A DNA stretch of 61,065 nt, filler included, from Dugesia japonica (Eukaryota), in assembly GCA_001938525.1 (NCBI GenBank). It is 6 parts of 6 records of this genome, joined end to end, with 100 filler letters (N's around TTAATTAATTAA, not from the genome) between each part and the next. Parts side by side here need not be neighbours in the genome. Positions count along the whole stretch, not along the records: positions 42,603 to 52,726 come from MQRL01578042.1; 5 more parts are not named here. The stretch is one strand, 5' to 3'. The translations under genes were made by a program, and so were the position numbers. The notes below the pieces were generated by a model that was not told the DNA's origin, did not search any database, and worked only from the letters and a program-made list of their open reading frames with translations. Within the stretch, counting starts at the first letter, position 1. Every line of letters begins with the position of its first letter. Of this stretch, positions 21,523-61,065 are shown piece by piece.

Positions 21523-22240
21523 AGTAGGGTGATAGTATCGCACGCGCACAATTTTTTAAGCAGTTATTGCGGGACCCCCTCCTCCGGGGGAGGGGGGCTC
21601 GGAAACACATTACGCTTGAGCTGCGTTTTTTAATCGATAATTATTGATTATCGATTTTTGATCTGATTGATTATTAATTACCGATTTTTGATCAGATTAG
21701 TTTTTTTTGATCGGATCATTTTTTTTTGATCGGATCAATTTTTTTTAATCTTTATTTTAATCTTTATTTTTTTTATCTTTTTTACTTTTTTTTAGGAGAG
21801 AATTTTTTTTATTTTGTTTTTTTGTTTTAATTAATGGACTTTTTTGTTTTAATAGTTAAACTTTTTTTTGTTTCAATTAATGAATTTTTATTATTTTAAA
21901 ATATGAAAATGGTTTGTTTCAATTAATACTAGAATTTTGTTGGTTATTAAACTTTTATTTTTTTTTGTGAGAAGACTTCATATTTATGTATGAGTTGGAG
22001 CAGTCTTGATATTTTGGAGGGAAATCTTTTTAAAATAATTAAATTAAATTTAATTTAATTAATTTATTATACAAGGAACGAGAGAAGTCTCTATATTTTG
22101 CATGAGATGGGGAGGAAGTCTCTATATTTATGCTCAAAGGTATATAAAGAATAAGGCATTAATTTATTTTTATTATGTACATTACTTTTAATTATTATTA
22201 ATTATTTTCATGCATTGTTTCAGTAACAGTCTTGTTTTCC
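21523..22240 (+). repeat. Putative Polinton-type terminal region (AGTAGG start), related to 58470-58888 in reverse orientation
   Basis: Starts AGTAGGGTGATAGTATCGCACGCGC and has GATC-rich subrepeats. Ends ATTATTTTCATGCATTGTTTCAGTAACAGTCTTGTTTT, whose reverse complement is at ~58475-58515. Confidence 0.4.
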
Positions 22241-22340
22241 NNNNNNNNNNNNNNNNNNNNNNNNNNNNNNNNNNNNNNNNNNNNTTAATTAATTAANNNN
22301 NNNNNNNNNNNNNNNNNNNNNNNNNNNNNNNNNNNNNNNN

Positions 22341-22700
22341 ATCTTTCATTATCTTGTTGTTTAATTCCAGCTAATTCGACAAACATATCTGAAATCGATT
22401 TCTTTATCGTGAAACAATCGATAAACCAAGATTTTGCTTCATCTTTTGTAGTGGGTTCTGTTTTAAAATCTTTCTATAAGACCACAGCTTCATCAGATAG
22501 TAATAGATCGAATGAACTCATCAAACATAAATTGTTTACTCGCAGCCATTCATCAATATATGTTATCGATTTTACAGCTTCTTCAAAATTTCGTCCATCA
22601 TATTTTCGAACATTGAAATTGAACATATCTTGCACTTTCTTCGGAAGTGAATCAATAATTAATTTTTTCTCTTGATGCCTTGTAACTGCACTGATATTTT
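22341..22700 (-). pseudogene. gag: Decayed retrotransposon gag fragment
   Basis: Minus-strand translation VRKYDGRNFEEAVKSITYIDEWLR..LLLSDEAVVL*..FVELAGIKQQDNE resembles Retrotrans_gag. Confidence 0.55.
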
Positions 22701-23769
22701 TGGCGTGTCAACAGTTATGCATTCTTCAACATCGGATTTCATAATACAGTAATATGAATTCAAATGTAACACGCTTAGTAAAGATTTATTATCATATTAG
22801 AACAAGTGACTTATTAATTTAATTAGTAATACACCGTAACTTTAAATATAGGAATTTAATGAAGTCAGGTAGTGAAAGTAACGTAACTTTACTAATACTT
22901 TGTAAACAACTACAAATGTTCTAATACTCAATTGATTGGCAAATAATTTCTGATTTTCATCCATGATTTCTTCTTTAAAAACATTTCCATCTTGTATTTT
23001 GTCTGTTTCATGTTATTCTGTTCTGTTTTCACAAACCCAAAAATCAATTCTGCTGGCCTCTTTTGTAGTTTTTTGTGTTAAAGCATTCATAGAAAATTCA
23101 ATTTCCGAAATCAAATATTTCAAATTTTGTTCTTTTTATTTATTAATGAAGTATTTTTACGATCTCAATTTGTTCTAAATTGTTGTTCTGTTAATCTATT
23201 AGCACTGTAATGATATGACCTAGAATTAACCACTTGTTTGCTATATTTATCAGCAAATTCTTTCATCCTATTCGATTCAAAACGATTTCTGCAATCTCAA
23301 AGTATTTTATGAGGTGCAACTAAATTTTAGAATTAATTTCTCAACCAAAGTATCAACTATAGTATTTTAATCTTTTTAACTGATCGCTGTTAATGATCAT
23401 AAATATACGGAAATGATTTGTAATTACCAATATATACTTTTCGTAATGTAAAGCTGTTTGTAATGATCCAAATGGTAATATAGATATTCTCAAATGGCCT
23501 TGAAAATGTTTCTGGAATTTTATTTTTTGTTCTAGTCATTTTGTTTTTGACATTCCTCACATCCATCAATACTTTCGTTAACAAAACTTGCCAAAATTTT
23601 TTATATCTAAAGTATTTCTATTATATAATTTTACTTTTTCACATCCAAGATGATTTATAATAAACTCAGCTCTTTTATCTTTGGTATCCATATTTTATTA
23701 TCTTTTGTTCTTACAATATCTTCTACTAACTTCATTATATCATTCATTTTTAATATTATTTTTCATTAA

Positions 23770-24719
23770 TATAAAGATATGAGTTTTCAAAAATAGCAGC
23801 CCTTAACATTTGAATTTGGAAAAGTTGCTCTAAAGCATTTATTACAGCACTCTCAAAATCGAGCAATATTCTATCTGGTGAAGCCAGTGAAATAATCTGT
23901 TTAACTGCCACTAAAATGCGATCATAAACAGCACGTGTTTTTGTTTGAACCAGACAGTAAATTGCAGTAGGATGTATATCAGGAACAAGTTGGAAATGTA
24001 TAGTATATAGCTGGAAAAATAGAAGTCACTACTTTGAATGTTCCATCTGCAAACCATAGTTTAGCTCTTTCCAATCCATCCAATAATTCGTCGTTTCCCA
24101 TTATCAAAAACCGATCATGTCCAGATACTGAATTATATAAAATCATATTTTGAAATTCTTCTGGTATATTGAATGTCATATCTTTTGGAGGTGGAAGAAG
24201 ATATGTCAATCCTGACTCCGACTGTATTTTTGGCGTTTTCGTTGCGAAGTTTGCTTAAGAGAATCCTTTTTTTGCTAAAGCCAAAAGAATATTCGATTAA
24301 AGTTCCATACTTACAGAACCTATAACTGCAGTCGTTGTTGTCGATATTTCATCCATTTTGTCTTTCATTTTAGCAACAGCTTGTTTTATTACCATCATGA
24401 TTATGCTGATGATCACAATCACCCACGATTTTATCTTTTTATGTTGTTAAATGGGCTTGACATTTGGAGATCTGATAACGTTTACAACGCCATTGAATAT
24501 TACCATTTGCATATTTCCGATGCTTAATAAATTCATATTGCTGATGCAAAACAGACACTTTTCCTTTTGTAGAAGTGCCAAAACTAATTTTATTATCAGT
24601 CATTTTAGCCGTTTAAATCACAATGATTAATTAATAAATTAATAATGTACATTGATGCTTATTTTGTTCTATTTTGTTTATCAGTGATTAAGTGTCGAGT
24701 GATTAAGTGTCCTCAAACC
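23770..24719 (-). mobile_element. 5' part of a Mutator-like element (FLYWCH + MULE transposase)
   Basis: Terminus GGTTTGAGGACACTTAATCACTCGACACTTAATCAC. ATG at 24603 followed by FLYWCH-like YEFIKHRK..WRCKRY..CQAH..HNH, then WFADGTFKVV and LLDFESAVINA. Confidence 0.85.
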
Positions 24720-25519
24720 ATCTGATCAACCCCCCCCATTAGCGGAAAAAGGTAACTGATCTGAAAAACTATGCCCTAGGTTATCGTGGATTTATTGATT
24801 AATGAATTTTGATCAGATCAAATTTTTTGATCGTAAAAAATTCTAAAAATTTTTTTGTTGCTTAAATTCATGTATAATTTTCGTGGGAATTTTAAATTTT
24901 GTTTTAATTTTTTTTGAATTTTTTGGCTGGGAAATCATTTTTTGTAAGTATTGTGGGTATTGTGGTTGGGCGGTATTGTGTGTGGAAGGTGATAAAGTAT
25001 ATTTGGATGAAAGTTGTGTGTTAATGGTATGTGTGTGAGTGCGTGTGATAAAAAACGAAATTTTTGTTTAAAATGTGTAGGTGTGTGTGATTTTGGGTGT
25101 TTGATGAAGGATTTGTTTTGGCTCGCGAAAATGGTATATACATTGCAAAAGGTAACTATTAATGAAAATGGGTCAGGAAGTTCCTGATTTGTTAGCGTAT
25201 CAGATCAGCATGATGTGTTATTGCGCGTTTGGGGTAAAAAAGGGCGTGGTGTTGGGAATTTTCGTTGGATTTGGATGGAAGTTGGTTTGTTGAAAAGAGA
25301 AAGTGTTGATGAGAAAGGTGATTGGGGTGGAGTGGTATTAATTTTTTGGATTATTGATGTATTTTTTAGGGTTTGTAAGTAGTGTGGATGGACGAAAAAT
25401 AATTTTTATATGGTTAGAGTGAAGAATATTACTGGTTTTTATTTTTTTCAAATTTTTTAAAGTAAAAGATAACATTTTATTTCTCATATATTAAACAACA
25501 CCCTTTAACTATTATATTT

Positions 25520-27723
25520 TTACGTATTATAGTATTTAAAAAAAGGCGCGATCTTATTTTGGTGCAAAATTTACTGCATACTCTAAACACGCGTTCTGTA
25601 GACGTAGGTTTAATACAAAGAATTGCGTTTTATAGTTTTTGTAGGTTTTCAGTTCTCTTACTTGTAATTTTGAATAATGTAAATTTCGATTTGAGCCACT
25701 TAAACTCTGATCCTAATCCTGAGAAATGTTCTGATAATTTATCTTTTTGGAGAAACATATTTAATTCATCTTATAATGATAAATTTTCATTTTTGATCAA
25801 TATTCAACGGTTGTTGAGCCGCTTCAGCTATATCAGTAACATCAAAAGGACAAGAGGCAAGATTTTCTGCAAATGTCAGTATGGGTTTTGATTGGGTAAC
25901 AGTTGGATCCTTAAGGCTTCGCAATAACTTCATTACATCTTCATTTATTCTTTCATCTACACGAATTTTTAAATGGTCCATAAGTTTGTTACTAAAGTTA
26001 CTGTTTATGTCAGAAAGTTTCATAAACATAAATTGCAAAATATTTTCGGCGCTTACTAATGTTGTATCTTCGTGACTGAAATTATCGACAACTAATTTTA
26101 CAGATTCCATTGCTCTGTGTAATAGTTTAGGAGCAAAAAAACCAAAATCTTCAATTATGTTTAATGCTTGAAATTTAATTAATGTCTCCCGAATCGCTAT
26201 TTCCGTTTTTATCAGTAGCTCAATCATATTTGGAATAGAATTCCATTGAATTTTAATATCGAAATGCAGTTCTATCTTGTGGCCTATTTCTTCTTTTACT
26301 TTGCCTAGAAACACATTGCGAACCGCAGATTTTTTGATAAAGCTAACAAGTTTCCTTGACTTCTCTATTAGATCGTGATAATAAAGTTCTTGCTCTATTG
26401 CATCATTACTTAAAATTTCTATATTCATTCCATAATCAAATGTGTCAATCTCATTAATATCATCAATTTCATTACTATCCATAATTTGATCATCATCATC
26501 CTCATCCTCTTGAATATTTATTTTATATAATGTATCATATACTCTTAAATGCAAAGCATGATTTAAGAAAAATTATCTGATTATATCCATATGTCATATA
26601 AATATTTTTTATTGACAGCAGCACTGTAAATCCAACAATGTTTTTAGCTAAATTAACTTAAATTTGTATTTTATCATAACAAAAATTCATTTCTAATCAT
26701 CATAACATAAATTTATTTAAATGATAAATTATTTGTATTGAGAAACTTTTTATTTTTGACTTCCAAAAACAGTAAAAATAGTTGGAAATAAAACAGCAGT
26801 TTTACTGTTACTATTTAACAGTTTTGAAAAACCCTAAATAACACACGTTGTATTGATAAATCATATTGCTTTTTATCCTATTCCTGACATGGAATGGATT
26901 TTTTGGTGATACCATGCCTTTGTCAGACAAAGATTTTCGAAAAAATTCAATTTTGGATAAAGCATTTATGGTAAAACTATCCACCATGGCTAGCTTTCAT
27001 ACAATCTCCTCGATAGTTTGCTGTTTAATAAACGTATTGATTTTTCTTGGCACGTTGTCTGTTTCCACTCCAACGTTTTTATGTTCCCGTTTAATTCCAA
27101 ATTCTTTGTGGGCGTTATTTAAATGACGAAGAAGCCCACTTGTGGAAAACCCTTTGCACATTATCTTTTTATTGCACTTTTTGCAAGTGACAGTTTCACT
27201 ATTTTTTCCTTGGTAAAATATTGCCATGTCTTTGATCCTCCACTTACTATCGACATGATTATAATAACGGTTTTTTCATGAAACTAATTTAATCGATTTT
27301 TGATAGCAGTAGTCTAAAGATAATTAAAAAATCGATAAATGAAACACAAATATAATTATAAAACAAATAGACTATTACAAAATGTTCTTACTTACATTTC
27401 GATTTTGATACGTTAAAATGTATACATTTAAACTACAATTATTTCAAATAAATTCAATAAGCTATTAATAACTAACTCGTTTTTCAAAGTTTTAAACTGT
27501 ATTGCACTCTTCACTCTTCTTTATGTTTATGAATAAACTATCTTGCATAATTAAAAAAATTATTTGTCAAATGTAAAAAATTGAATATCAAAATAAAAAA
27601 GGAAAACCCAAAAATTTAAGAAATTAAATTAAACAAAAAAATTGGTTTCCCGGGATATATTCATTATATTCCGGGATATCCCGCTATCAATTTTATCCCC
27701 GGGATCCCGTTTAAGAAACACTA
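25520..27723 (-). mobile_element. Decayed hAT transposon with BED zinc finger, containing a nested small insertion (~26570-26840)
   Basis: TIR TAGTGTTTCTTAAACGGGATCCC. BED finger CKKC..STSGLLRHL..H, then HALHL, DIKIQWNS and C-terminal IKPTSTERVF. Confidence 0.85.
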
Positions 27724-28479: not shown

Positions 28480-28830
28480 CTAAATTTTCAACTGCAATTA
28501 TGATTTTTTTTAACATAAGACACAGTGTTGTCCACAAGTTGTTTTTAATAGATCTCGATTTCAAATTATGGTTTTGATAAATGTTATACCAATTTTGATG
28601 TATAATATTAAAAAGCAAATGAATCAAATACCACTATTTGAGCAGATCTATTGTAAACAGCTATCCAATGTTCTCCACCTAGATTTGATGTATGAGTATT
28701 GACGATTTAGTATTGATTTACCAGAATATAATTTGGAAGCTTGAGTAATGCATAGACACCTAGCCATGGTGATCTCAGCAATATTGATTCAATTTGATCT
28801 ACCTGAACGGAACTAATAAAATAAAAATTT
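28480..28830 (-). pseudogene. Adenain-like protease, copy 2
   Basis: VNTHTSNLGGEHWIAV..VFDS..TTCGQHC. Confidence 0.8.
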
Positions 28831-28882
28831 CTAATAAAATAACTCTTACTTTATGGCATGTAACGATTATACAACATATTGT

Positions 28883-30100
28883 TTCCACTAATACTGTTCC
28901 GTTGGCTTTAATCTGAATTTCGTTTTCTAATACTCTAGAAATTATAACATTTCGATGATGTTAAAGCTTTGGCAAATTTGATATCCATTCTCAAGTTTCC
29001 TTGCTGAGTTAATTGACTCTGATTTATATTAAAATCAGGAGCGAGAACACATGTAAAGAAGGGATAATTGTCGTTAAAATCACCAAGTGTTATTACATAA
29101 TTCATATTCTTTTTCAAATATCCCATATTTTTAACTATAGATTTTATTTATGTTGTAGGTATTATTATCGTTTGTAAACTCTTGAGGACATACTTCTCAA
29201 TAATCAGTGTTTTTCGTTAAGAAAACAGAACCATCATCTGAATTTTGAAATGCTGAACTATAGCTTTTATAACTACCATTATATTGTTCTCCTTTTTGAA
29301 ATGTAACTAGAATAAAGTTGAGTAATCGACGATCGCCAAATATTTGTTTCTTAAAGAACGATGAACTATCTTTACTAATTGCAAATACAACGAATTTTTT
29401 GGTTCTTATTGGATAAATAGCATTTTGCTTTTTTAGTCCCAACTGATGAGCAGCTAGTACTGAATGTTCAACTCGTATACGTTTAACCATTAATTTGTAT
29501 CTAGTAATACATATCTAGGTACATTAGCTGCAGATTCCAAACAAATCTTAGAAGATGCTCTTTTCAATCGAATATGAACATTGACACATGGAATAAGGTA
29601 TTTCGGTTGATCCATGAAATTGAGTTGCAATGAACTGCATATAAACAATTGTTTTGATATTTTAAAAGACTTTTATCTATCTGCTTCTGTTCCATATTCC
29701 ATTGCTGCAAGACAGATATTTTACTATCAACATTATAATTTATTATAGTTTCAATTATTGCTTTGTGAAGATAAGATCCATCCCCACCTTCAATTTGAAA
29801 TTGTTAAACCAAAAAATTACATCCATAAAAAGTGTATGCAAGATATAGTTTGTAGGTACCGTATCATAAGTTTCAGCCATATCTTTACCTGTATTATCAA
29901 CTACATTCACTTTAATATACAATAAAGTATCATTCACATCTAAATATTTTGTTTGAGATCCAATTATAAAAAACCCTACGTCGCTTGGTTATTCAGAAAT
30001 TGAGTTCATAGGAAAGACTTCTTCAAATGTACCACTTTCAATTACAGCTTGCGGAGATTGTCGATCAAAAGTGCATAACTCAGTTTTACCGCAAATTATT
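28883..30100 (-). pseudogene. Major capsid protein, copy 2
   Basis: ICGKTELCTFDRQSPQAVIES, YLDVNDTLLYIK, VKRIRVEHSVLAAH..AIYPI and QGNLRMDIKFAKAL. Confidence 0.85.
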
Positions 30101-30937
30101 TTTCAAATATTGCTCCATGACTTCTCATTTGTTTGTTTATACACGATGCGACTTATTTTTTACATTTTCTATGAGTTTGTTGTGTTTTGACTTGGTTTAG
30201 TAGCATATTAGTTATTTCAGACTGTATTTTATTTCTTATACTTTGCGGTAGTATGTTTGCTACTTTTGGAATCATACTGGTTACTTCACTAGATAACGAT
30301 GACATAACCTTTCCAAGTTCAGCTAATGCATTAGATTTTAATGTTTGTAGTATTTTTCGATCATAAGCTAGTACATTCTGAGCTGCTTTTAAACCCAATG
30401 AACCAATACGTTTAAGAATAGGTTGTTAGATGAGTTTGAAATACTTATCGGGTCATTAATATCAAACCTCGATTCCATAGCAAAATGTATTCACAAACAA
30501 AACTATAAATATAAATTGGCAAATTTAAAAATTCATATTCAAAAACGGAAAATATCAAATATCAGTATTTTGTAAAATATTTTAAAATTTTTATTAATAT
30601 CAAATTTAAAATTTTATATACATTTCACATAAATATTTTAATACACATTAAAATTTTATATTCTAAATTTCTCATTCACTAGTTGTACAAAATTAAATTT
30701 TAAAAATTTATTTTATAATTTATTTTACTAATACAAATCAAAATACAAATCTGATATTAATCAATTCAGCTTTAAAATACAAACAATTTAAATCTGTTTT
30801 AAAAAACTATCTTATATAGGTAAAACAAATCTACCTATTGTTCGTAACCAACCTGATCAATATTGTTTACCAAGAAAGTAAGGTAATTCTCCACCTGCTT
30901 GACTAGTACTATACAATGATACGATATCAGGATTCAT
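30098..30937 (-). pseudogene. PW-like small basic protein, copy 2, split by a solo-LTR-like insertion
   Basis: Homologous to 8766-9178. ORF 30153-30398 is its C-terminal part. Confidence 0.7.
30424..30816 (+). mobile_element. Solo-LTR-like insertion with 5-bp TSD (TAGGT)
   Basis: Begins TGTTAGATGAG. TAGGT at 30419-30423 and 30817-30821. The homologous site in copy 1 has no insert. Confidence 0.6.
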
Positions 30938-30939
30938 TA

Positions 30940-32400
30940 TTATGTTTTCTAAAATTTAACGCTAAATGCGTTTTTGAGTCTTCAGCAAAATTGCTTAGTT
31001 TTCCCCTATCATCTCGTATATTGATTTCTATATTGTTTATATATGACCAAGAAATAAGTTGGATGCTCAACAATTATTTGAACTACTTCATCATTTTCAT
31101 TTTCTTCTATCAATACTGATTTCAATAAAGGAATATTAACATCACGAACAACAATCGGTTCAACAATACTACAATAGATGAAAATCTTTTATAATTTCTT
31201 AAAAAAGGGATGTTTTTAAAAACAGATTTTATTTTTTGTATTTTGAAACGGAATTTGATGAAATCAGTTTGTTAACTATTTAAATAAGAAAATAAGATTA
31301 AATATATATAATGTATTTTTAAAATGTATATTTTAAAATATAAATAATGTATTTTTAAAAATATGTATAATGTATCAGTTTGTTTAAATATTTAAATAAG
31401 AAAATAAGATAAAATATATATAATGTATTTTTGAATTTGAAATTTAATAAATTATGGATAAATTAAAATAAGATAAAATATATAAAATTTAATAAATTTG
31501 ATATTAGATAAATTTTAAAATGTTTTGCAAATACTGATATTTGATTTTTTCCGTTTTGATATGAAATTTTTAAAATTTGTTTGAAAAAACAAATTTGTAT
31601 GTATAGTTTTTTTAATAGATCTTGTAATGAAATCGAGTTCTGATGTTATAATCTGATGAGTTCTCAAAACTCATCTAACAATCTCGTATATTGATTTCTA
31701 TATTGTTTATATATGGCGAAGAAATAAGTTGGATGCTCAACAATTATTTGAAGTACTTCATCATTTTTATTTTCTTCTATCCATACTGATTTCTATAAAA
31801 GAATATTAAAATCACCAACAACAATCTGTTCAACCATATTACAATAGATGAAAATTTCATTATAACACTTTAATATAGTAAGTTTCTTATTAATTTTATA
31901 TTGTAGTTGTATATATTCGAGTATAATCTGATTCTTTTAATCCTAAGGATTTTGTTCAGATTTTATCGAATTTAAAACTTTAGTTCAACTTGACAATGTA
32001 AATTAAAATAATTCATCTTGATTTAATTTAAAAGTTTTAAATAGTTACATGATTTAAATCCATTATATACAATTCGGGTTCAAATTGAAATTAATGTTTA
32101 GTTACAATCGCATAATAATATTTAATTTTTATTTGTTCAATGGAATCATCATTTTTAAAAATATGAAAGCGAATTGAAAATATTTTATCGTCAAAATTTA
32201 TAATATTATCCGCTCTCACAACTTCCCCTTTAGAATGTGTAAATCTTACCAAGTTTTCCATAATATCAAATGATAAACTGTGGAATTTAATATCACTACT
32301 AAATATTATCATATTTTTCTTTAATGTTATATCTGTTTCCGTATTATTTTTATATTTACCTTGAGAATTAACAGTTAAAGCACTGTTTTTTTGTTATTAA
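30940..32400 (-). pseudogene. Minor capsid protein, copy 2, with insertion and partial duplication
   Basis: IFIYC..VEPIVVxDVNIPLLK..VVEHPTY motif is present twice. Confidence 0.7.
31200..31680 (-). mobile_element. Second copy of the same solo-LTR-like repeat, opposite orientation
   Basis: Ends AAACTCATCTAACA, the reverse complement of the 30424 start. The other end resembles 30780-30815. Confidence 0.55.
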
Positions 32401-32873: not shown

Positions 32874-33327
32874 TGTTGAGGTGAAACACCCAGTGGAATG
32901 AGAAATAAAGTTAAAGGGGATCCAAAATCATTCGCAGTCAAAAGAAAAATAATATTACGGGAAGGAAAATCAAACAAGAATCAGGACCATGGTAATAAAC
33001 AAAGATGGAAAGACTCAGACGATTAAATTAAGTTGGATTAATTAAAATAATCAAAAGAATTATTAAAATTAATAAAGAAAACGATTAACAGAAAAAGAAA
33101 TAATTACAAGAAATTGTCATTTAATTTAAAACAAAAAAGTAATTAAATTTGGGCAGAAATTCGAATTATGACAATAACTTCGCTCCAGATAATCACAGGA
33201 GGATGGCTCAAAAAAATCTCAGGAGAATTTCAGTAAAGGCATCGGAATGTTATCATCAAAAATCTCAACCATGATCTGGAAACCTTCAGCAGGGATTTGA
33301 AGATTGAGCCAATGGCAAACTTGAAAN
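32874..33327 (+). mobile_element. 5' part of a probable LTR, related to 20445-21436
   Basis: TGTTG start and colinear similarity to the reverse complement of ~21020-21436. Confidence 0.45.
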
Positions 33328-33591
33328 NNNNNNNNNNNNNNNNNNNNNNNNNNNNNNNNNNNNNNNNNNNTTAATTAATTAANNNNNNNNNNNNNNNNNN
33401 NNNNNNNNNNNNNNNNNNNNNNNNNNTTACAAATGAATTTAGTATCTTGGTGGATTATTTGTTAAGATTCATAACAAAAGTAAATAATAATTGCAGTAAA
33501 CAGAATTATATTTATATAATATGCATATTCTATCATCTATCCTCTTTTTCCTTTTGAAAATGTGCATGGTGGAATACTAATGCATCTCTGA

Positions 33592-35269: not shown

Positions 35270-36532
35270 CTAGGTTGAGTCAAAAGTTCCCGGACACTTT
35301 AAACTAAAAATATATAGAAAAAAAAGTCATAAAAACATCAAAGTTTTATTCATCAAAATAAAGTCCTTCGCTATATAAGGTCTTCAACCATCTATCAGCT
35401 AAATTTTGGACTCCTTTCTGATACCATTCTTGTGGCTGGGACTGCAAAAACTCAAGGACTCCACTTTCAACATCTGCTACTGAATTGAATTTCTTACCAA
35501 TCAGGACATGACTCATTGACCGGAATAAGTGATAATCTGATGAAGCTAAGTCTGGGTTATAAGCTTGGTTAGGTAGTAGTTCGATTCCATCGAGCTCTTC
35601 TAACTTAGACTTTACCACTTTAGAGTAATGGGTTGGAGCATTATTTACTGCAGAAATACCCGTTTTCTATTGATTAAAGCTGGATAACGAGTGGTCAGAA
35701 ATTCATAAAGTCGTTCNAATTGTTCAACATACCGGTTTTTTATCCACAGCCCGGCCTTCTAGAATAGCTGCCATAATACAGGACACTCAAGATTCCACCA
35801 CATGAATAACATCACCTTGTGTTCGAACCTTCCATTTTTAGCTACCAATGATGCCTTCTGACCTGGCTGAAGCTACAGCCCTTTAATAATAGGGTTTCTG
35901 AAATATATCCACTTTTCATTGCCAGTTATGATTGTCTCCAGAACCTATCATCTTTAGGATTATCCAACAATTTCTTGCAAATTTCTTCCCTCCTTTGTGC
36001 TTGTTGATCAGAAAGTTCATGGCAAAAAAATCTGGGTTTCTAATTTGCAAAACCAAGTTTGTGAAGGTGCCGAACATGGGTTGATTGAGACGTCCCAAGT
36101 TGAGTAGCCAGTATGCGAGTGCCGGTATCTGGCCTTTGTTGAATACCTTGCAACAAAGCTTCAGTTATCAGGACCGATGGCCTTCCAAAACGTGATTTGT
36201 CTTCCAGACTGGTATCGCCTTCATTAAATCCACGAAATTATTCTCCTACGGTGGCTTTTGAAACTATTCCAGGACCTTCAATTTCACTTATTTTCATGGC
36301 TGTTGCTCTTACGCTTAGACCGTTTTTCCAATAATACGCAGGATACCGTAAATTATGATTTTTTATTCGCCATTTTGTGAGCTTCTATGATAAATATTTT
36401 TTAGAAATTAAATCTATAATAATTGACTTACTATATAAAAATAGATAATCCAAATTTTTTTAAAATAACCTGTATTTTTTGAATTAAAATAGACAAAATA
36501 AAAAGTGTCCGGGAACTTTTGACTCAACGTAG
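35270..36532 (-). mobile_element. Full-length decayed mariner (DD34D) element
   Basis: TA-flanked TIRs CTAGGTTGAGTCAAAAGTTCCCGGACAC / GTGTCCGGGAACTTTTGACTCAACGTAG. Transposase from ATG 36373 to 35346 with YNPDLASSDYHLF. Confidence 0.92.
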
Positions 36533-41785: not shown

Positions 41786-42602
41786 NNNNNNNNNNNNNNN
41801 NNNNNNNNNNNNNNNNNNNNNNNNNNNNNNNNNNNNNNNNNNNNNNNNNNNNNNNNNNNNNNNNNNNNNNNNNNNNNNNNNNNNNNNNNNNNNNNNNNNN
41901 NNNNNNNNNNNNNNNNNNAAATTTTCTTTAACTATTGAAGTTGATAGATGACCAAAATGACTATATATTCCATTTTAAAATCGAATATGATAAAAAATTG
42001 ATACGAATAACCAAAGAAACTATATATTAAAGATAGGTACATTAAATTGAAATTAATAGTAACTAAAGGTTGGACCAGCATACGTGAAAAGAGTTTTTTC
42101 AATTATGAATTTCGCGCGAGTTTAAAAATAAAGTCTTTTTATCAAAAAAACTTTTTGAACACATTAGTATAACCAAGTATTCACTTTTAAAACCGAGTGG
42201 CATTGCATAACTAATTTAAAGTANNNNNNNNNNNNNNNNNNNNNNNNNNNNNNNNNNNNNNNNNNNNNNNNNNNNNNNNNNNNNNNNNNNNNNNNNNNNN
42301 NNNNNNNNNNNNNNNNNNNNNNNNNNTGGCTAACTGTTGGTCTTTACATATTTTGAGACAATTTCCCAAAGCACAAATTTAACAAGAATCGTATTTTATT
42401 AAATTACGGATAATCTTAATTGATATTATAATTGTTTTGAAATAAAAGTATTCTAAATTCAAAAACACTTAAATGAATAAAACCAATCAGAAATTAAAAT
42501 TCNNNNNNNNNNNNNNNNNNNNNNNNNNNNNNNNNNNNNNNNNNNNTTAATTAATTAANNNNNNNNNNNNNNNNNNNNNNNNNNNNNNNNNNNNNNNNNN
42601 NN

Positions 42603-43050
42603 GCTGCTTCTATTGGTTGATCAATCACATGTCCTTTCTTGGCAATAACTTGAGTCCCATGTTTGATGGTAATTTTCCCGGTGGCAAATCCTTCATCGCA
42701 TTGTTGTCCGGTTAGATGTACAGAATGTCTCACTGTTTCTGGGTCAATGATTGAAGTATAACTGTGATATCCACAATGAAATATGATGTTTTTACCGTTA
42801 CTGTACATTCGCGTACTTGGGCCTTATAGTAATCAGACTCTTGATATAAATGGTAGACGGAATTATTACGGAATGAGATTTTCTCCGGGTTTGCGTCTGG
42901 ACATTCTTCTGTATCCACTAACGAGAATACTTCCTTCCCAACTTGCATTCCATCGCATTCGTATGCTAGTATGGCTTCACTTCTGCCCATCATTAAGAAT
43001 AACAAGAGTATTGTAGTGGTTAACGCTTGCCAGGAGTTTCGACGAGGTCC
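42603..43050 (-). pseudogene. env: Envelope glycoprotein N-terminus, chuvirus (Jingchuvirales)-glycoprotein-like, with internal signal peptide
   Basis: RRNSWQALTTTILLLFLMMGRSEA / ILAYECDG..FSLVDTEECP..HLYQESDY..RECTVTV(K)NIIFHCGYHSYTSII..QQCDEGFATGKI after repairing one frameshift in an A-run at ~42790. Confidence 0.75.
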
Positions 43051-43129
43051 ACGTGTCCATCCATTCTCGATCTCATTTAACTGATCCCGAACAATCCTGA
43101 TTACTCTAGTAGCATTTTCATGAGAGGGC

Positions 43130-43530
43130 TGAGGTTTAGGGCATATTGCCTCAATAAACTTTTCCCATCCCCCATGCTGTTTTATNNNNNNNNNNNNNNN
43201 NNNNNNNNNNNNNNNNNNNNNNNNNNNNNNNNNNNTTTGACGGCTTGCTTCTAGCGATTGTTAGGTGTGTTTGATTAATCAGATGCGCTATGGATACTAC
43301 TATCCTTCCCTTCGTTGGCTGCTCTTGTAATAATTCATCCATTACCCCTTTTAAATTATTTCTTGTACCATGACTGGTGCCTTTAGTGGCGGGAAATTTC
43401 CTAATGGCTGCCTCTATTTCCTTTGCCAATGGCCTAAGACTATCAGATAGCTGAAACTTTCCAATCCATATTTTTAACTCTGGGTATAACATTAATAATA
43501 ATTGCCGTATTACTACTTCGGTTGGCATGT
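43130..43530 (-). CDS. Bcl-2-like domain within ORF2 polyprotein
   Basis: BH3-like LRPLAKEIE, BH1-like VMDELLQEQPTKGRIVVSIAHL, and BH2-like IKQHGGWEKFIE (43150-43185, read in the glycoprotein frame just after the N gap). Confidence 0.7.
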
Positions 43531-44344
43531 CATCATCTGTTGAATTTTCGTGGTATCTTTCTTGTGATACCGTTGCTAGTCGCTTAGTTTGATGGTTTAT
43601 TGATGTGGTTAATCGTTTTTGTTTTAAGGCCTCTGGGTTTTCCGGGGGCTTGGTTCTTGACCGACCTCTATTACGAGGTTCCGTAATTGTTTCCGCATCT
43701 ACTCGGGTGCGTACTGGCTTTGGCAGTATTTCCTCGTCTTCTATTTCTATCGGATTTTCCATCTCTAGTGAGTGGTTTGTATCCATCAAATCATCTATTA
43801 CCGAAGATGGCAATTCTTTTGCTATTCTGCTTAATATTGGTGACAATGGTTGGTCTTCCAATATGTCTTCCTCGTCCAAGTCGACCTTGCTAGGGTCGTA
43901 TTTTTTACTGCGTGCTGGTTCTTTCACCTTGATTTCTTCACTTTTTCTAGTTGGAGGAGAATATTTTGTAATTTGTAAGTCGTCTTTGTCTTCTGCTGAC
44001 TCGTCTGCTGATGGTGATCCAAATATTTCACGTTCCCAATCTTGGCTTGTTTTAGGAGTTTCTTTGGTTTCCCGGGACGCTTCAGTGCTTCCAGATTGAT
44101 CTGTTGTAGGTCTTAATATTTGACTAGCCGCTAGTTGTGTACGGTGTTTATATGCTTTTAACATACCGGATGTCTCTCCCATTATTGGTCTGGTTTTATC
44201 TGCTGCTTTATAGGGATCTNNNNNNNNNNNNNNNNNNNNNNNNNNNNNNNNNNNNNNNNNNNNNNNNNNNNNNNNNNNNNNNNNNNNNNNNNNNNNNNNN
44301 NNNNNNNNNNNNNNNNNNNNNNNNNNNNNNNNNNNNNNNNNNAG

Positions 44345-47300
44345 TTTGTATGGTGGTTTAAATGGCAACTTGTCTCGTAGTTGTTTTACCGTATTATACA
44401 CCGGCATTTTAACCGTGATTTTGTCCCCTTCTGGATCGATTATTCTGAATTTAACTTCCAATGGCGTGGGTTGTCCCATCTCCGCTTTTCTCCATTTAAC
44501 TAGAATTTTACTAAACTGAACTGGATCCCATACATGTGCTACTTTGATAGCTAGTATTAATCGTCGCAATTTTCTAAGATCTTCTACTGCCAAATCTTGT
44601 TGTAAGGCTATATTGTATCGTCGCATGATTTCCGGCTTTATTAACTTATCGCCTACTAGTAATTCGAACAATTTCGGTAAATTGTCTTCTGGTTTTTCAT
44701 CTTTGACCGGGGTGTTGGTCAGAGCTGCTCCCATCTATACTCTTTGATTATTTTGCTCTCGTTTAGAGAGTTTAGCTCTAGCGAATATTAATGGATGTAT
44801 TTCTTCCAGGTAATATTCCACTAACTCCCTAGCTTCCTGCTTCCATTTTTCCTCCGAGACCCGTGGTCGTCGTCTCTTCTCATCCCTTGATGTTAAATAA
44901 ATTTTTAATTTAGTACCTGGCCAAACCCCCATATATTTTACTGGCAATCTCATTTGGTCTGATTCTATTACGTGGCTGTAATAGAGTACTATGTCGTCTT
45001 CCTGAACTGATGTTTGCAATCCAGTTTCCTCCTCGTTAAGGCTACGTTNTTGATTCATAAATTTTACAATCCTCTTCCGCAACTTAGCCCATGGTTCGTT
45101 CATTTGGACCTGCCAACGAATTTCAGTTTCGTCGGGAAATCTGATTGTTACCGTGACGGCTTCGTTGGTTATCATTCAAACTGTGTTATTTAATATTGCA
45201 TCCATTATGTCTTCCGGCATTTAACTTATGGCTCGTAATTGATTTAGCTCTAGAACTAATTCAATGACTTTGTCATGTCTTAATAGTTCCAAGTTTTCTT
45301 CCAAGGTTAAAAGTATTTTCATTATTACTCGCGCCAGACTTCCCCATGTTTTACTGTCTTCCCATAACTCAATATTTATCTGCATTGTTCTGTCATTGAC
45401 TACTTCGAATAACTGTCCACTGTTAATTTCTTGTTCGTATAGTTCCTCTAGTTGTTGTATTACTTCCTCCATAGATTTTACCGGGCCTGGAATGTAATCC
45501 TCTGGTTTCTGTATTTGGAGAAATGTATTTTCTCCGGGTCTTAATCCTACATCCATTAAATGTTGTTTTCCTTCAAACTTTATGGGGAATCTCAGATGAT
45601 CGCTTGTGATTATATAGCTTTTCTGCTGGTCGGCTATATCCAGTGTTTCTATAATTTCTTGTAATTCCCCCGCTGATGTACTGTTAAAATGTGGTATGTG
45701 CATGACAGTCAATTCCGGTTCCTTTCTGGTTTTTTTTGTTTGGTGTCAGATATTTTATCGTGACTTGAAAATCTTCTCCCCTGGCACTTGTTTTCACTGC
45801 ACCAATATACGACTTGATTACTGATTCCTACTTGGCACAATCTTCTCTTGCTATTTCAGTATACTTTGTTAGATACATTAGTAAATTTAATGCTTTCCAA
45901 AATGCTACTCGAGGTATCCTTTCCTTGAAATAACAAAAATCCGAAATTATCTTCGATATCCGCTCTGCCTGCGGCGAACTGAAAGGGCCAGCGAATTCAT
46001 GTTTAAATGGTTACAATCGGGGTTGACCAATATCCTCCGAGATTTCTTCCTCCTGCTCTTCTTCATCTGAGGTTAGGTCTGGTGTGTCATGGTCTTTACT
46101 CCGAACCATGTTTATTTGGGCTTTATTTTCGCCATAAGTGTTTATGAGTCGTTCATTCTCTACCGGTAGTATTTCTTGTAGATATAAGCTCATCATGTTA
46201 AATATGAGTTGATCGGTATCCGGCATTTTCGATATTGGGATGTCTACGGTCATTTTACGCGATGTTAGTTTGATTTCTGTGATCTCCCTTGGCTTGATAT
46301 CATGCAAAAAGATATGGTCCTCTTTCTCGGCTAATATAATCATTGTTGCTCCTGCTTGCATTTTATAGGACTTGAGCGATTTTGGTCATAGCCATTTCTT
46401 GATTGGTTTTATGATATGGTTGATCGTTAGTCCTTCCAGCGTTATCATATCTACCTTTTTTATGCTTCCCTCCTTACTAAGTAGGCTGACTCTGATAGAA
46501 TAGTCGGATATAGTGGATGTATTCTGTACTTCCTCTTCGTANNNNNNNNNNNNNNNNNNNNNNNNNNNNNNNNNNNNNNNNNNNNNNNNNNNNNNATTGC
46601 CAAATCCCGTAAGTTATTCATCATTTTCCAATATACTTTGATATTCACGACTGGTCGCGTTTCTCGTGTTACTCTTAGTAGATCATTGATAGCGTGAAAC
46701 GTGGCGGATTCCTCCGTTATCGGTTTGGTATAATTCATCCGAATATCGCGTATTGTTGGCGTGCCTTCTGGGAATATGACGGATTTTGTAGTAATTATTG
46801 GCAAGTTATCGATATTCTGTATTTTCTGATTCTCTTTTACTTGTTCCTTTATGCCAGTTAATACCTCGGATACGTATAATTCTGTTATCTCTTCCATTCG
46901 CTCCTCGAGATCCGGTGATTGATTCGTCCGTGGCTCCTCGTCTACATCTAACTCACATATTTCTCCGGGCTTTGCGTGGCATTGAAATATGTGTTTGTCC
47001 TCGTCGTTGATCTCAACCAATTTGCCATTTATGAACAGAGGTACCATGTTTAGCCCTAGTTCTCGCCACTTATCGGTAATGGCATCAATTAAATCCATCA
47101 TGGTTATTCCTTGTGGTTTTAACCGACTATATTTAGTCAGTTCCTGTTCATTTTTACCTATATTTAAATATAATTTATAATCCTGAATTTTGGTAGTTGC
47201 CAATATCTCTTCGGCATATTTCTGCCTAATCATGAGCCATTGGTTCTCGATTTCCTCCGGTATTTCTAGTCCATCATATATGTCGTAGATTCTATTCATT

Positions 47301-48047
47301 ATCATCCAATAGGTTTCTCGGGGTAAGTTCTCCTTCTCCATCTGTACTCGGTTAACCATTTCCTCCACTTTACGCATTGCTACTACCTCTCTTGATGGCA
47401 TCTGTTGCATTCTTATCATGTTGCATTTGCCCTCTCTTCTCTCCAATCGCTGCCTGAGGAAGTCGTTAGGCGTCATTAACAACTGTTTCCTCTCTTTCTT
47501 TGTCAGTTTATCTTTCTTCGCGAGTACCGTGGAAAGTATCTTGATTTTAATTGGTAATACTCCTGGTTTATATAGATATTCCATTTCTCCCATGATTTCT
47601 AAAGCTGATCTTCCGGTTTTTGTTATCCAGATGTCATAGTCAATACCGGGGTGTTTGTCCAATACTACGATTTCAATGTCCTCTCCTAGTTTTACTCCAA
47701 AATCGTATAGATGTTTCTTTCGGGCGTTAAAATCTATCATAGCACTTGGAGTGCACACATATGTATCAGTTATGCATGGATAACCTGCTTGATTAAGCGC
47801 CGCCTCTAGATCTTCTACCATTAATCCCGTGAGGGTCAATTTCATGTTACCTTCTGGGCTATATAACCATACTTAGTAATCTGATGATTCCATGTTAGAT
47901 ATTACCCATTCATAATGCACTGGTAACCATTCTGTCCAATCGGGCGTATTCTGGTATTTCCCTTCAGTTTCTATTTCTTCTTGATTCATTTCTAAATGTG
48001 AAACATTGATTAACTTCCCCGTGGTTTTTATCTATATACATATTCAT
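44345..48047 (-). pseudogene. ORF2 polyprotein N-terminal part: six ~230-aa repeats each beginning with a ubiquitin-like (beta-grasp) domain
   Basis: Recurring end motifs KHLYDFGVKLGEDIEIV, KHIFQCHAKPGEICELD, DHIFLHDIKPREITEIK, QHLMDVGLRPGENTFLQ and LPVKYMGVWPGTKLKIY, each followed by an E..ELY..E helix. ORFs 45221-45712, 44735-45175 and 43151-44734 share one frame. Confidence 0.7.
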
Positions 48048-48094
48048 TAAGTAAGTTTACCATTTACACTACTTACAGGTAATTTCTCTTTATT

Positions 48095-49700
48095 TTAAAA
48101 TACCAATATACCCGGTGCCTGGTAGTGTCTAGGCACATACATTGGTAATTCGTGAGGTGCGTTTCCTAGCGGAATTCCCGAATAGTTTGGTGGAGCTAAT
48201 CGTAATTGTCGCTCCCGTTTGCTGCGGTGGTGTTTCTCTTTCTTTGGTTTTGAAACAAGTAGACAAATAATGCTTATTATAAGCACCGTAATAATAATTC
48301 CTCCGATACCTAACGCATAACCTAATTCATAACTTCTTGTTGGTTGAATTGTGGTGGTTCTCATAGATTCTGTAATGGATTTTTCTATTATTTCTATGTG
48401 ATTCCTTCTTGGTTCAAATTTGCTTAAATTTGACATCCAATTGTTCAGAAAATTTGCTCTTTTTTCTTCCTTCTCGCGATTCTGTGTTGTGGTGGTTATC
48501 TGAATTTTGGTAGTATTTGCTAACTTGGGTATGTTTGTGTGTATGGGTATTTTGGTAGTCCCTTTTTGTTTTCCCGTTGCCTTGGTTTTTATTATTATAT
48601 CTTGGTTAATTACCGTGATAAATTCAAATCCCCATAAATCTTTGTCAAATTCTCNAATATTCATCTCTTGATACATTTCCCTTCTCCAATAATCTTTAGT
48701 ATTGAATCTCCATCCCCACTCATCAAGATCCTTGATCGTATGTATTAACAATTGTTCCACCTTCTTCACGAACCGTACATAGTACATACCCTTAATTTTT
48801 TTCACTTGTAAAGAATATGGGCCCGTTGCCAATATGGTTTCCACCCCTTAAATTCTTGATTTANNNNNNNNNNNNNNNNNNNNNNNNNNNNNNNNNNNNN
48901 NNNNNNNNNNNNNTATGGAATGTACTTCTCGGCCCTGAGTGACTGTTATGCTCTTTTGTCCTATTTCTACCCCCTTTTTATTCCATAATTCTGTTTCGTA
49001 TTGCATGCGCTGCCATATAATCGTATGGTACAGGTATTCACTTTTTGGACATATTGTCGTTATTTGTCCTCCGGTATCATTTCGTATCCATTCTTTGTGC
49101 CTGAAGTTATTTTCTACATAATATAATACAGAGTTACTTCCTCGTGATACTTTGAATTCTTTACTTGCTTCGTAAATTAATGGGTTGTTCGGATTTCTCC
49201 ACGTTATGTCCCATACTTTTTCTATCTGCCACTTGTCTATATTGAACCCCAATAATCTTCCTTCCACTGGTTCTTGGCTGAGGAGTTGTATCATAATCCT
49301 TCCTTTTGCTCGGTGTAGTTTAATCATGGTGCTTTTTTGACTTTTTATCACTGGTGTTAAAATTAATTGTCCGTAACCATACATTGCTTGTGTTTTCTGT
49401 TCCCTCTGAAATCCTAAACGACTTATTGTTATGACGTGCATCTTTCCTTCCTTGATGAGTATTCTATGTTCCGTTAAGACTGGTTCATTTACCCAGCATT
49501 CTTGACCTCCGATCCATCTTAGGATCATTATTATAGTGGTTATTATGATTTGTCCACTGGAAATTCCATTCTGAGAAGTTACTTGTACCTGTTGCATTGC
49601 TAAGGTTGGTAACGAAAGTCCTACTAGAATTAACAAAATTAATTAAGTAAACAAAATTAATATGCCATAATACCAACTTGTGTTGATTACCGCCCATAAC
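48095..49700 (-). pseudogene. Type-I membrane glycoprotein at the C-terminus of ORF1 (signal-like segments, ectodomain, Thr-rich stalk, TM helix, PPxY tail)
   Basis: Hydrophobic LILLILVGLSLPTLA and IIITTIIMILRWIGG, sequons NDT/NTT/NLS, stalk TTKIQITTTTQ, TM LGYALGIGGIIITVLIISIICLLV followed by KPKKEK, and PPNY at 48182-48193. Confidence 0.7.
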
Positions 49701-50069
49701 ATCAGGGATGCTTTGACTATTATTTCTTCTGTAATCTCATTCTTGCTTCCTTGTGGTAACTCGTTTTTTGATTTTCTTAGTTTTGATCGATCCACCACAT
49801 CTTGTATCAATGTCATTTTCATTTTTTTCGCCCTTCCAGGCGTTATTCTGACTGATTGTCTCTCTTCTTTTTCCATTCCATCCCCTTGACCGTGAAATGA
49901 TTGTCTCATCAATTTCACTTGTTTTTCCAACCCTTCATTAGGATTCGCGATACTGATTGGTTTCAATTTCCTACAAGCCAATTTGTCTGATCGTATGTCT
50001 AGTAAGGTCATATTTTTTGTTTGTGTTTACTTTGAATAGGTGGTTCGACGATTGGATATCTAACTGTTC

Positions 50070-51390
50070 ATACACTCTAATCCAGTTCCATTGTACTAGC
50101 GTACGGTGAAACACATGTATAGATGTTAGTAATTCTTGACTATAAATATCTGTGCATGGCATGCATAATTATTTTTATAATAAATTGACGAATTGGGGCT
50201 TGAACCGGCATTTTGATTCGAGATCCATCACAGTCTTTCCTTAACCGATTTTCTGGTCTGGATAACCACGCTTTTTGATTGTAAATGGCCTTTAGTGCAT
50301 TTTTAAATATTATCTGTGTTTGTCGGATACATTGTAAACAACTCTCTTCCAATTGCAGTGCTGACAGTGGACAAGTTATTTGGTTAATGTGATTGCAACT
50401 TTCTTTGTATCTTGGTGTCTGGCTCCCCTGGCAAGTGATCGTATAGCATGTAGTGGCATTCATAGCTTCAATTGCCAGAGGTCGACGCATTTGATTATCT
50501 AAACCAAAAGATACGGTTTTAACTTCTTGTGCTATAATGGCTGATTTATCATTAATCATAGATGATGTTATTGGAGTTTGAGAAGTACGAATAATACTTG
50601 GTGTCTTAATTATTTTAGGCATAACCAATTTATTCGAATTATTCAATTTGGTTGTGATTAATGCCATCTTTCCAGTATCCGTGTTTTCGTTGTTGATTTT
50701 ATTATGAAAATCCTGACCTGATGCCCCGCCATCTTTCAGTTTCCTTTCTTTCCTCTGTCTGTCTGCGTATTTTAATACGCCCTCCTTCAATAATCGCGAT
50801 ATTTTTTTCAACTCTGTTTCTATCTTTTCATCTTCTTTTGATTGTAGGTCCGCTTTCTCTTCCGAATTCACATCTTTCTCCGTTAGTTCCCCTTCCCCAT
50901 CTTCTTCAGACTCAGCGTCCTCGCTGAGACGTCTCTTCCTTAATAATGATTCTAGCCCGCTCCATGGTGGAGGGTCAACTGGTTTAGACCATAATACCAA
51001 CCAGTCTCATACTATTAATATCGTGTGGAAGTTCTCAATAGCTCGAGTGAGGGTTTCATTATAAATACTGACACAACGTTCGCATAAGGTGTGTATTTCG
51101 TCTTGTTCCAATGGTACTTGAATTGTTAGCTTGTCATGCATTTTCGCACATCGTTTTCTACTGAGTTTATTTTGTTGTAACAACTCAAGTCTGCGACTAG
51201 CGATTTCCCGCAATGTTGATTTCAAAAATGATTGCAATTTCCATATGCATGCAAGGCAATTTGCCTCGATTAGAGTTGGTGAGATTGGGCATGTCACCTG
51301 AGAGAAGTGCGCACAACAGTTCTCGGGCACTAGTGCCTGCGTTCCTCGTGGAATTATAGGATATATTGCCGTGGTACCCAATGCTTTAAC
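50070..51390 (-). pseudogene. Two copies of an unrecognised ~125-aa Cys-rich domain separated by a charged/low-complexity linker (ORF1 extension)
   Basis: CAHFSQVTCPIS..CLACI..RKRC..LCERCVSIY..FHTILIV*DW aligns with CNHINQITCPLS..CLQCI..RKDC..LCMPCTDIY..FHRTLVQWNW. Confidence 0.75.
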
Positions 51391-51479
51391 TCGCTGGCTT
51401 AATTGACCTAATATGAATACTGGGGTGGATATTTTCCCGAGTATCATTATAGCTTGTTGTGATCGTAATTGGTAACTAT

Positions 51480-52726
51480 TTAACTCCAGATTTTCCGACT
51501 TACGTGGCCTACCTGGCCCTCTATGTTCCGTCGCAGTGGGTGCGGTACTTGTGGATGGCGCAGTTTCATCGCCGCCTTTTTGCATAGGTTGGCGTCGTAT
51601 ATCTTTGGTTTTTCTAATAGGTTCCCTTTCCTTCGAACTTTGAGATTAGTTTCCGTTACTTCACTTACTTCATATGGTCCTTGCCATGGCCTTTTTAGTT
51701 TTGATGTAGTGCCGACACAAATGGCTGGTAAATTGACCAATACCATGTCGCCTTTTTTAAAGGAATGCTGCACTGCTGATTTATCTTGTAAATCTTTATA
51801 ACTCTCCTGGTAAAACCCTACATTCTCCTTGACTTGTTTCCATATTTTCTGCATAGTTTCTTTGAAATTTGCAGCGAAATCTGTTTCGTCTTAGTATTGT
51901 GTTATCAGTGGTTGGAATTCCAAGTCAATGGGCATGTTACACTCTCTGCCGTACATAAGACCAAACGGAGTGTATTTTGTTGCTGGATGTACACTCATAC
52001 GGTAGGCAAATAAACACAGTTGAATATGTTTATCCCAGTTATTTCGTTCCTTTTGAGCGTAACTGGATAACATATTGATCAAGGTTTTATTAAATCGTTC
52101 CATTAATCCATCTGTTTGTGGACGATAAGGTGAGGTTCGTAACTGGTGAATTTTGAGGAAGTTCGATATTTCTACTAATATGTTGCTCATAAAGTTCTTC
52201 CCTTGATAGGTCAATATTTTCTTTGGTGTGCCATATCTGCTGAAAAATTTTCGTACCAGAATATCTGCTATGTAGTCGCTTTTTGATTTTTCATAGGGAA
52301 TGCCTCTGGGAATTTCGACAAGTAATCCATGATTGTTAGTATGTAGATGTTTCCACTCAGCGTTGGTGGTAACGGTCCAACTACGTCTATGGCTATTATT
52401 TCCATAGGTGCGGCGGGGACGGCTATTGGTTTTAATAATGCTTTCACGCGTTTACCAGTTCCTCTTCTGGCAAAACATATTTGACATTCGGCGATCCATT
52501 CCTTCACTGTCTCTGTCATGTGGGGCCAGTAATACTTCTGTCTTAATTTTGACTCGATTTTCTTATGGGACATGTGTCCTCCTAGTGCTCCGTTGTGATA
52601 TTGCTCGAGTAATTTATCTCGTCTTGCTTTAGGAATGACTAATACAGTATTTTCAGCCATCCTTTAGTGACTGCATAACGCCCTCCGTTTTTCTTTAAGT
52701 GTTCTTTCATCTTGGGTTCGCATTCT
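51480..52726 (-). pseudogene. pol: Ty3/gypsy integrase (HHCC, D,D35E, GPY/F) followed by an AT-hook
   Basis: HNGALGGH..YYWP..CQIC, IAIDVVGP, LTYQGKNF (second Asp mutated), YRPQTDGLMERFN, KLKRPWQGPYEV, and RGPGRPRK at 51499-51522. Confidence 0.95.
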
Positions 52727-52826
52727 NNNNNNNNNNNNNNNNNNNNNNNNNNNNNNNNNNNNNNNNNNNNTTAATTAATTAANNNNNNNNNNNNNNNNNN
52801 NNNNNNNNNNNNNNNNNNNNNNNNNN

Positions 52827-60050: not shown

Positions 60051-61065
60051 ATATGTGTAATTGAGCAATAATGAAAGATAATAGTGGCATTTGTAAATCG
60101 ATCTTTAAAAAAAACTTAAGAGTACTTATTTTACTATATTCAACACAAAACATCCTTTATTTATAACAAGTTGTAATTGAAAAGTATTTTATCTATATTT
60201 ACGATAAAAAAATGTTTATTGTTTTTCAACGGTTGGATTTATCAAACTATAAGTAGTGACGTCACAGTTGAAAATTGCATAGTAACATTGGAAACAATGG
60301 TACGACTGTGTTTTTGAACCCCATCCTAGCGGGGTCTGATTGTATATGACATTAGACTCTATCCAATCAAAAATTACAAATAAATAAGATTTCACATATC
60401 CCGTTAAGATGGTCGAGTTTAATGTAAATGAAAAGAGAAATTTAGTGTGAGTTTGGATTTTGTTTTTCAAAAGATTATAAATTAACCCAATAGTATAGAT
60501 AAAATGTATCGTAAAGATCAAATTGCGACAGACAAAGGGCTTACATAATATTTAATAATTTATTAACAAAATAAGACATTTTAAAAGTTTAAAATAATCA
60601 GTTTTATTTTAAAAGAAATTTATTAACACTCAATTCCAAATCTGTCCATATTTCTTGTAATTACATTAATTGCCAAATGAACGGTCCCCATACTTGAAGT
60701 TTGCAAATAAAGACGATCCTCACCACTGTAAACTAAATCGGTACGTTTAAGTTGAGGACCGCCTCCAACGAATGTATGAGCCATATCTTCAAAAAATGAA
60801 GATGACGACGGTCTCCATGTCAAAACATCAATTTTATGATATCCTGGTGAAGATGGAACCGAACAAAACCCATATCCATATAATTCTTGTCTTCCACACC
60901 AATCATGATGCCAAACTTGAAAAAAAAGTTTAGGCCATCCTGAAGAAATGTAAAAATAAAAAAAATTTGATGAAGAATAACTATATTATTTAATGTAACC
61001 ATTTGTAGTAATACTGTTGAATGTTTAGGATTACAAATTATAACAGATGTTTAAAAGGAATATAA

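Follow-up and report, generated by a model that had tools for sequence, protein, structure and literature searches.

The window analysed here is a stretch of 61,065 nucleotides of DNA, filler included, from Dugesia japonica (GCA_001938525.1), made up of six parts that are not necessarily neighbours in the genome; the artificial joins between them, at 13,218-13,317, 22,241-22,340, 33,327-33,426, 42,503-42,602 and 52,727-52,826, each consist of 44 N, a 12-base linker with stops in all frames and a further 44 N. One of these parts, contig MQRL01578042.1 at positions 42,603-52,726, is a piece of a multi-copy Ty3/gypsy element. It is coding on the minus strand throughout, has a uniformly higher GC content (31-41%) than the sequence outside the element (20-30%), and is strongly T-skewed on the plus strand over its whole length. 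Read on the minus strand from 52,720, the order of features is integrase, an AT-hook-like motif, two Cys-rich repeats, a membrane-protein ORF, a second long ORF and a fusogen. The contig begins inside pol and ends inside env, with gag, protease, RT and LTRs lying beyond it, and this copy is decayed, every ORF containing stops and frameshifts. Elsewhere in the window, decayed inverted stretches at 5,500-10,700 and 28,600-31,000 are 77-85% alike and hold ORF pieces that appear Polinton/Maverick-like by eye; DNA transposase fragments that by eye are mariner-, hAT- and MULE-like occur at 18,300-27,300 and 35,300-35,700; and the last exon of the host B9D2 gene lies at 60,623-60,985 (minus strand; Pfam B9-C2, E=5e-34), with a fluke as its best match (59%) and a shark scoring similarly (61%).

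The integrase (51,480-52,720, minus strand; frameshift near 52,270 and stop at 51,893) comprises an H2C2 zinc finger, a core and a GPY/F-type C-terminal domain, with Pfam matches to Integrase_H2C2 (E=7e-19), rve (E=0.003-0.004) and MLVIN_C (E=0.14) and the residues WQGPY at 51,686; this combination of H2C2 finger, DDE core and GPY/F module is that of Ty3/gypsy elements (Metaviridae). A short motif at 51,499-51,519 (minus strand), which we take to be AT-hook-like, is in the frame of the Cys-rich repeats and is probably the continuation of the integrase tail past a frame break near 51.57 kb. The region at 50,064-51,318 (minus strand) consists of two tandem repeats of about 110 residues with a C-x-H-x3-Q-x-T-C-P...C-L-x-C and later C-x2-C pattern. 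Repeat 1 (50,983-51,318) aligns in one frame with the first half of repeat 2 (50,064-50,400) with a score of 127, and the second half of repeat 2, which is split over two frames near 50.17 kb, matches repeat 1 in another frame with a score of 65; none of 2,000 shuffles reached either score. This homology runs through both the frame break near 50.17 kb and a stop at 51,009 inside repeat 1, which lies opposite a Trp in repeat 2. Repeat 1 also has a weak Pfam match to DUF1477 (E=0.004, under the cut-off), and the Cys-rich repeats behind the integrase are probably zinc-binding.

Downstream lies a membrane-protein ORF of about 620 codons (48,095-50,011, minus strand, as are all the features within it), which in the copy at hand is interrupted by in-frame TAA codons at 49,645 and 48,850, by a 50-N gap (48,864-48,913) and by one further N. 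Judging by contigs of other copies, the gap is only a placeholder for what is a much shorter stretch of DNA, so the single frame across it is accidental and a further frame break lies near 48.82 kb in this copy. The stop at 48,097 is absent from the listed differences between this copy and others (40 of 866) and has more stops behind it, and as such the ORF is taken to end there. The initial annotation had described clustered hydrophobic segments, one transmembrane (TM) helix followed by a basic stop-transfer, and a tail with a PPxY motif, all of which are borne out. Three hydrophobic segments forming an internal signal or anchor cluster occupy 49,505-49,723, one of them strong (19-residue hydropathy 2.79) and two weaker, the last being similar in length and hydropathy to the internal signal of the fusogen; the stop at 49,645 falls within this cluster and is not present in one contig of the X1 data described below. 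The TM helix (48,254-48,310, 19-residue hydropathy 2.93) is followed by a basic stop-transfer at 48,215-48,250, with 8 Lys or Arg in the 15 residues after the helix versus 1 in the 15 before it. Under the positive-inside rule this asymmetry predicts that the tail is cytosolic and that the approximately 370 preceding residues are luminal, and a luminal ectodomain in turn needs an odd number of crossings, one or three, in the hydrophobic cluster.

The ectodomain (48,590-49,504, which contains the placeholder gap) is basic, Trp-rich and Cys-poor, having together with its stalk a pI of 9.7, 12 Trp and 2 Cys. It had been proposed to be aromatic and beta-rich; the aromatic content is only modestly raised (9.7% vs 7.1% background), and beta-richness appears only in a structural model with a pLDDT of 39. 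A block of aromatic, beta-like character at 48,570-48,860 (minus strand) is better shared among copies than the parts flanking it, and by eye may resemble a lectin-type sandwich. Proposed N-glycosylation sequons proved to be at chance level, with 3 in ectodomain plus stalk where about 2.3 would be expected (0.0061 per residue). The stalk (48,311-48,589, Thr/Lys-rich in 48,485-48,589) had been called Thr-rich and mucin-like, of which the first holds and the second does not: 11 Thr in 40 residues is the highest Thr content in the element, but Ser, Thr and Pro together make up 13 of the 40, versus 15-16 in its other linkers, and the segment is Lys-rich. No relative of the ectodomain was detected among 1.84 billion representatives, so it may represent a new surface-protein family, and no homologue or fold of the membrane protein came out of the searches; a fusogen query was likewise without matches, so these collections probably lack such elements. 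The features together support a type I membrane protein separate from the fusogen. Its Pro-rich tail of 52 residues bears, besides the PPxY motif (PPNY, 48,182-48,193), an additional LPxY motif (LPMY, 48,137-48,148). This pair is the only occurrence of [LP]PxY among the 3,131 residues of the element pieces, and it stands in a predicted cytosolic tail behind a TM helix, as in NEDD4 PY adaptors. In 200,000 shuffles of the tail, PPxY alone arose in 6% and two [LP]PxY motifs in 0.3%, the latter a post hoc test chosen after the motif had been seen. No PSAP or YPxL motif was found in the membrane ORF.

Between the membrane ORF and the second long ORF lie about 100 bases in which the membrane-ORF frame has stops. 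The second long ORF is in pieces from an ATG at 47,989 (43,151-47,989, minus strand) and contains repeated domains, an acidic linker and BCL2-like motifs. The internal repeat has E=2e-6, and the ORF has a weak Pfam match to UCH_UBL1 (E=0.1). We take the repeated domains, by eye, to be ubiquitin-like, and the motifs at 43,309-43,165, in a piece split by a gap, to recall BCL2 BH1 and BH2; neither the ubiquitin-like nor the BCL2-like pieces were confirmed by Pfam or fold search. No gag match was found at the start of this env-bearing ORF. Part of it, at 47,300-47,661 (minus strand), is at a contig depth as high as that of the integrase, suggesting a widely shared core segment. Behind the BCL2-like motifs, an internal signal and the N-terminus of a class III (chuvirus/gB-type) fusogen lie at 42,603-43,023 (minus strand), cut by the contig end. 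Pfam Monjiviricetes_fusion (PF24664) matches here in two frames (E=2e-8 and 1e-5) over the N-terminal 130 of 653 positions, so that the env is of the class III, gB-like kind found in gB-type errantiviruses, and the integrase lies 8.5 kb upstream of it on the same strand.

Other copies of the element were sought in four sequencing runs, of 24 listed, by comparison with 47,300-52,720 at 85% likeness. X1 contained 6,726 matching contigs covering 30 of 30 bins, of which 461 were at least 99% alike, 1,312 were 95-99%, 3,047 were 90-95% and 1,906 were below 90%. X2, which bears a second species label, contained 1,246 contigs covering 29 of 30 bins, though over much of the ectodomain their depth is only 0-7; it comes from the same study as a run with the first label and is as such weak evidence of a second host. 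Summed contig depth, which is not copy number, was 11,000-72,000 over the integrase and tens of thousands at the start of the second ORF, versus 200-900 over the first half of the ectodomain and the stalk, with values in between over the aromatic block (48.57-48.93 kb) and the hydrophobic cluster. Low depth implies that this cassette is either fast-changing or restricted to a subfamily. The listed differences mark positions at which the copy at hand departs from a letter shared by nearly all other copies, the 40 listed being those ranked highest by support. All 11 that fall in the membrane ORF (in 10 codons) are at codon positions 1-2 (P=0.012 if evenly distributed), as are 3 of 3 in the integrase core and 6 of 6 in the next ORF; neither the Cys repeats nor the integrase N-terminus shows this skew, third positions accounting for 6 of 14 and 2 of 2 of their listed differences, respectively. 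To the extent that codon positions can tell, the skew shows that the reading frame mattered, and is compatible with purifying or diversifying selection. The PPxY motif in X1 differs at its x residue and the residue after the Tyr in all the depth available (8-9 contigs), and none of the 40 differences listed of 866 falls in the codons for its two Pro and its Tyr, a pattern that fits a conserved core. The Tyr of LPxY is lost in one X2 contig, and the TM helix has a single listed difference in other copies, a conservative one. In two poly(A) libraries, of which about a quarter each was read (13.6 and 11.6 million records), 33 and 2 reads fell on 47,300-52,720, all partial fits, and none on 47,300-49,833.

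The membrane protein had been described as fused to pol. This is not so in the copy at hand, in which the integrase frame shuts at 51,480 and three frame changes precede the ATG at 50,011, but it is plausible for the family. Length differences in contigs of other copies occur at 51.57 kb (by the AT-hook-like motif, in X2), 50.0-50.07, 49.64, 48.9 and 48.82 kb, and worked out by hand these are compatible with a single frame. Each comes from 1-2 contigs, and the pieces listed are at most about 340 bases long, each far short of the span from integrase to tail; the differences listed include neither an indel at the 50.17-kb break nor any change at the stop at 51,893. We consider it reasonably likely that in intact family members the integrase-to-tail region is one reading frame, with the membrane ORF fused to pol.

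The reading that we favour, with a probability of about 0.4, is that the element encodes a ligand-binding type I protein that is sorted by NEDD4-family ligases in the producer cell, by analogy with Commissureless and the herpesvirus PY proteins. In intact members the membrane protein would probably be the C-terminal part of the pol polyprotein. A cytosolic part, comprising integrase, Cys repeats and a basic linker, would be made first, and the internal signals would then direct the ectodomain through the ER membrane, where signal peptidase would free it; the TM helix would stop transfer and the tail would stay cytosolic. The second long ORF appears to end alike, with an internal signal and the fusogen. 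The ectodomain may then bind a host surface molecule, and the pair of PY motifs may attract a NEDD4-family ligase that would deliver the protein together with its bound partner to endosomes or lysosomes, possibly to clear a receptor, evade immunity or mark the assembly membrane. The initial annotation had read the PPxY motif as late-domain-like, which is the weakest part of that annotation; the better-known role of a PY motif in the tail of a membrane protein is as a NEDD4 sorting or adaptor signal. The abstracts of two papers describe such signals, single-pass PY proteins that send themselves and their partners to endosomes or lysosomes (Commissureless and herpesvirus UL56-like proteins), and UL56-like proteins that even lowered retroviral vector output (PMC12101832, PMC5849660). 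As far as these sources go, the presence of two PY motifs in a Pro-rich tail and nowhere else in the element, as in Commissureless and UL56, UL42 and U24, argues for sorting. Drosophila Commissureless and herpesvirus UL56, ORF0, UL42 and U24 share with our protein a single-pass topology with PY motifs in the cytosolic part; in contrast, it has a much larger ectodomain, is retroelement-encoded and has no detected sequence likeness to them, which makes this a functional analogy and not membership. The herpesvirus adaptors are tail-anchored with tiny ectodomains. This difference, the lack of a homologue beyond the family, the 6% of shuffles with PPxY, the loss of LPxY in one X2 contig and the absence of poly(A) reads on 47,300-49,833 in the two libraries all weaken the sorting reading.

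The same ligand-binding premise is shared by a close but less likely rival reading, in which the protein is a virion attachment protein whose stalked ectodomain binds a target-cell receptor and pairs with the class III fusogen, the PY motifs only directing traffic to the budding membrane; both could hold. A large ectodomain on a stalk and a fusogen in the same element are consistent with attachment, as is the low contig depth over the first half of the ectodomain and the stalk relative to the integrase, which indicates few relatives within 85%, as for a host-facing surface. However, the Cys repeats are equally divergent by depth (600-900), and fast change is therefore not specific to the ectodomain. 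Two Cys and chance-level sequons would be unusual in a virion glycoprotein, and the 1,512 errantiviruses of one survey, in the portion of it available, are described as having gag, pol and a single env, such that a gB-type env seems sufficient (PMC13524379).

An improbable reading is that the protein is a budding factor, with its PPxY acting as a late domain that recruits NEDD4 and ESCRT for release. Late domains are usually in Gag or matrix, and bluetongue virus NS3, a small protein with two TM helices, also has PSAP. Co-synthesis with Pol would bring the protein to assembly sites, and NS3 offers a precedent as the budding exception among PY membrane proteins, in the part of the source available, being a viral membrane protein with PPxY, albeit of an unrelated virus class (PMC4452911). 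Against this, the membrane ORF lacks PSAP and YPxL, an ectodomain of 370 residues would be unneeded, and gag, beyond the window, may carry its own motif. Equally improbable is that the ORF is a captured fragment of a host surface protein carried without function, an alternative that the initial annotation had raised. Animals have many type I proteins with PY-bearing tails, and the broken state of this copy and the lack of poly(A) reads in two libraries would be expected of such a fragment; but the ORF has the A-rich composition of the rest of the element (A 0.40-0.43) and no apparent introns, and its presence in many diverged copies, together with the codon-position skew, disfavours a recent neutral capture. 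Least probable of all is an assembly artefact or chimera that joins an integrase, a membrane ORF and an env belonging to separate or nested elements, which a multi-copy family, a short-read contig with three N gaps between membrane ORF and env, the lack of an LTR in view and the env-before-pol order of flatworm elements in the available descriptions might suggest, but against which stand the absence of N from 52,726 to 48,914, a single N from 48,863 to 46,596, a GC content and AT skew that stay uniform from 43 to 52 kb, a protein repeat of the second ORF that spans the 46.5-kb gap, and the finding that none of the 15 joints listed, of 41, skips the membrane-ORF cassette.

A broader and more speculative proposal, which we consider rather unlikely as a whole, is that a lineage of giant LTR retroelements makes two polyproteins, each ending in a membrane protein released by signal peptidase: pol ending in a new-fold receptor binder with a NEDD4-docking tail, and the ubiquitin-like/BCL2-like ORF ending in a class III fusogen. 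If true, a retrotransposon would divide attachment and fusion between two proteins, as herpesviruses or paramyxoviruses do, and Pol would be anchored at the budding membrane during its synthesis. Envelope-bearing retrotransposons have been described with one surface protein; a second, unrelated and apparently selected one would imply virus-grade accessory complexity in invertebrate retroelements, and would offer a handle on how giant elements pass between cells or disarm host surfaces.

The layout of this element was not found in the portions examined of the literature on Burro, errantivirus and rotifer LTR elements. The rotifer elements are described, in the part available, as having TM-bearing extra ORFs of 210-230 residues without homologues in place of env, with the caution that TM, sequon and cleavage motifs are no proof of an env role; in contrast, the membrane ORF here is much larger and stands beside a true fusogen (PMC5408684). 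With the gB-type errantiviruses, as far as the survey text goes, our element shares a Ty3/gypsy integrase and a class III fusogen, but the survey elements have three ORFs, and those of flatworms are reported only in the order gag-env-pol (PMC13524379). The survey's filters allowed a pol-env gap of up to 1 kb, or looked 3-5 kb downstream (PMC13524379), and so a layout with more than 8 kb between pol and env would be missed by such surveys. Closest are Burro/GYPSM1 of dugesiid planarians, which have a very long coding region, huge polyproteins and an AT-rich animal host, and which bear ubiquitin- and apoptosis-related accessory domains, according to the part of the description available (PMC6431247). 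In Burro, the polyprotein carries first ubiquitin-like, then BCL2-like and then mononegavirus-like env domains, and env precedes pol (PMC6431247). A similar order is suggested here, a mononegavirus-like env lying in frame directly behind a putative BCL2-like piece with putative ubiquitin-like domains before it, the latter two being recognised by eye alone. Burro1 differs, again on the available text, in having env in frame between gag and pol, whereas here the integrase is 8.5 kb upstream of env, the env-bearing ORF lacks a recognisable gag and the stretch after env lies beyond the contig; the Cys repeats and second membrane protein are present here and are not named in that text (PMC6431247). 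In its overall organisation the element thus resembles a giant, Burro-like Ty3/gypsy element, Burro being the nearest kind so far described.
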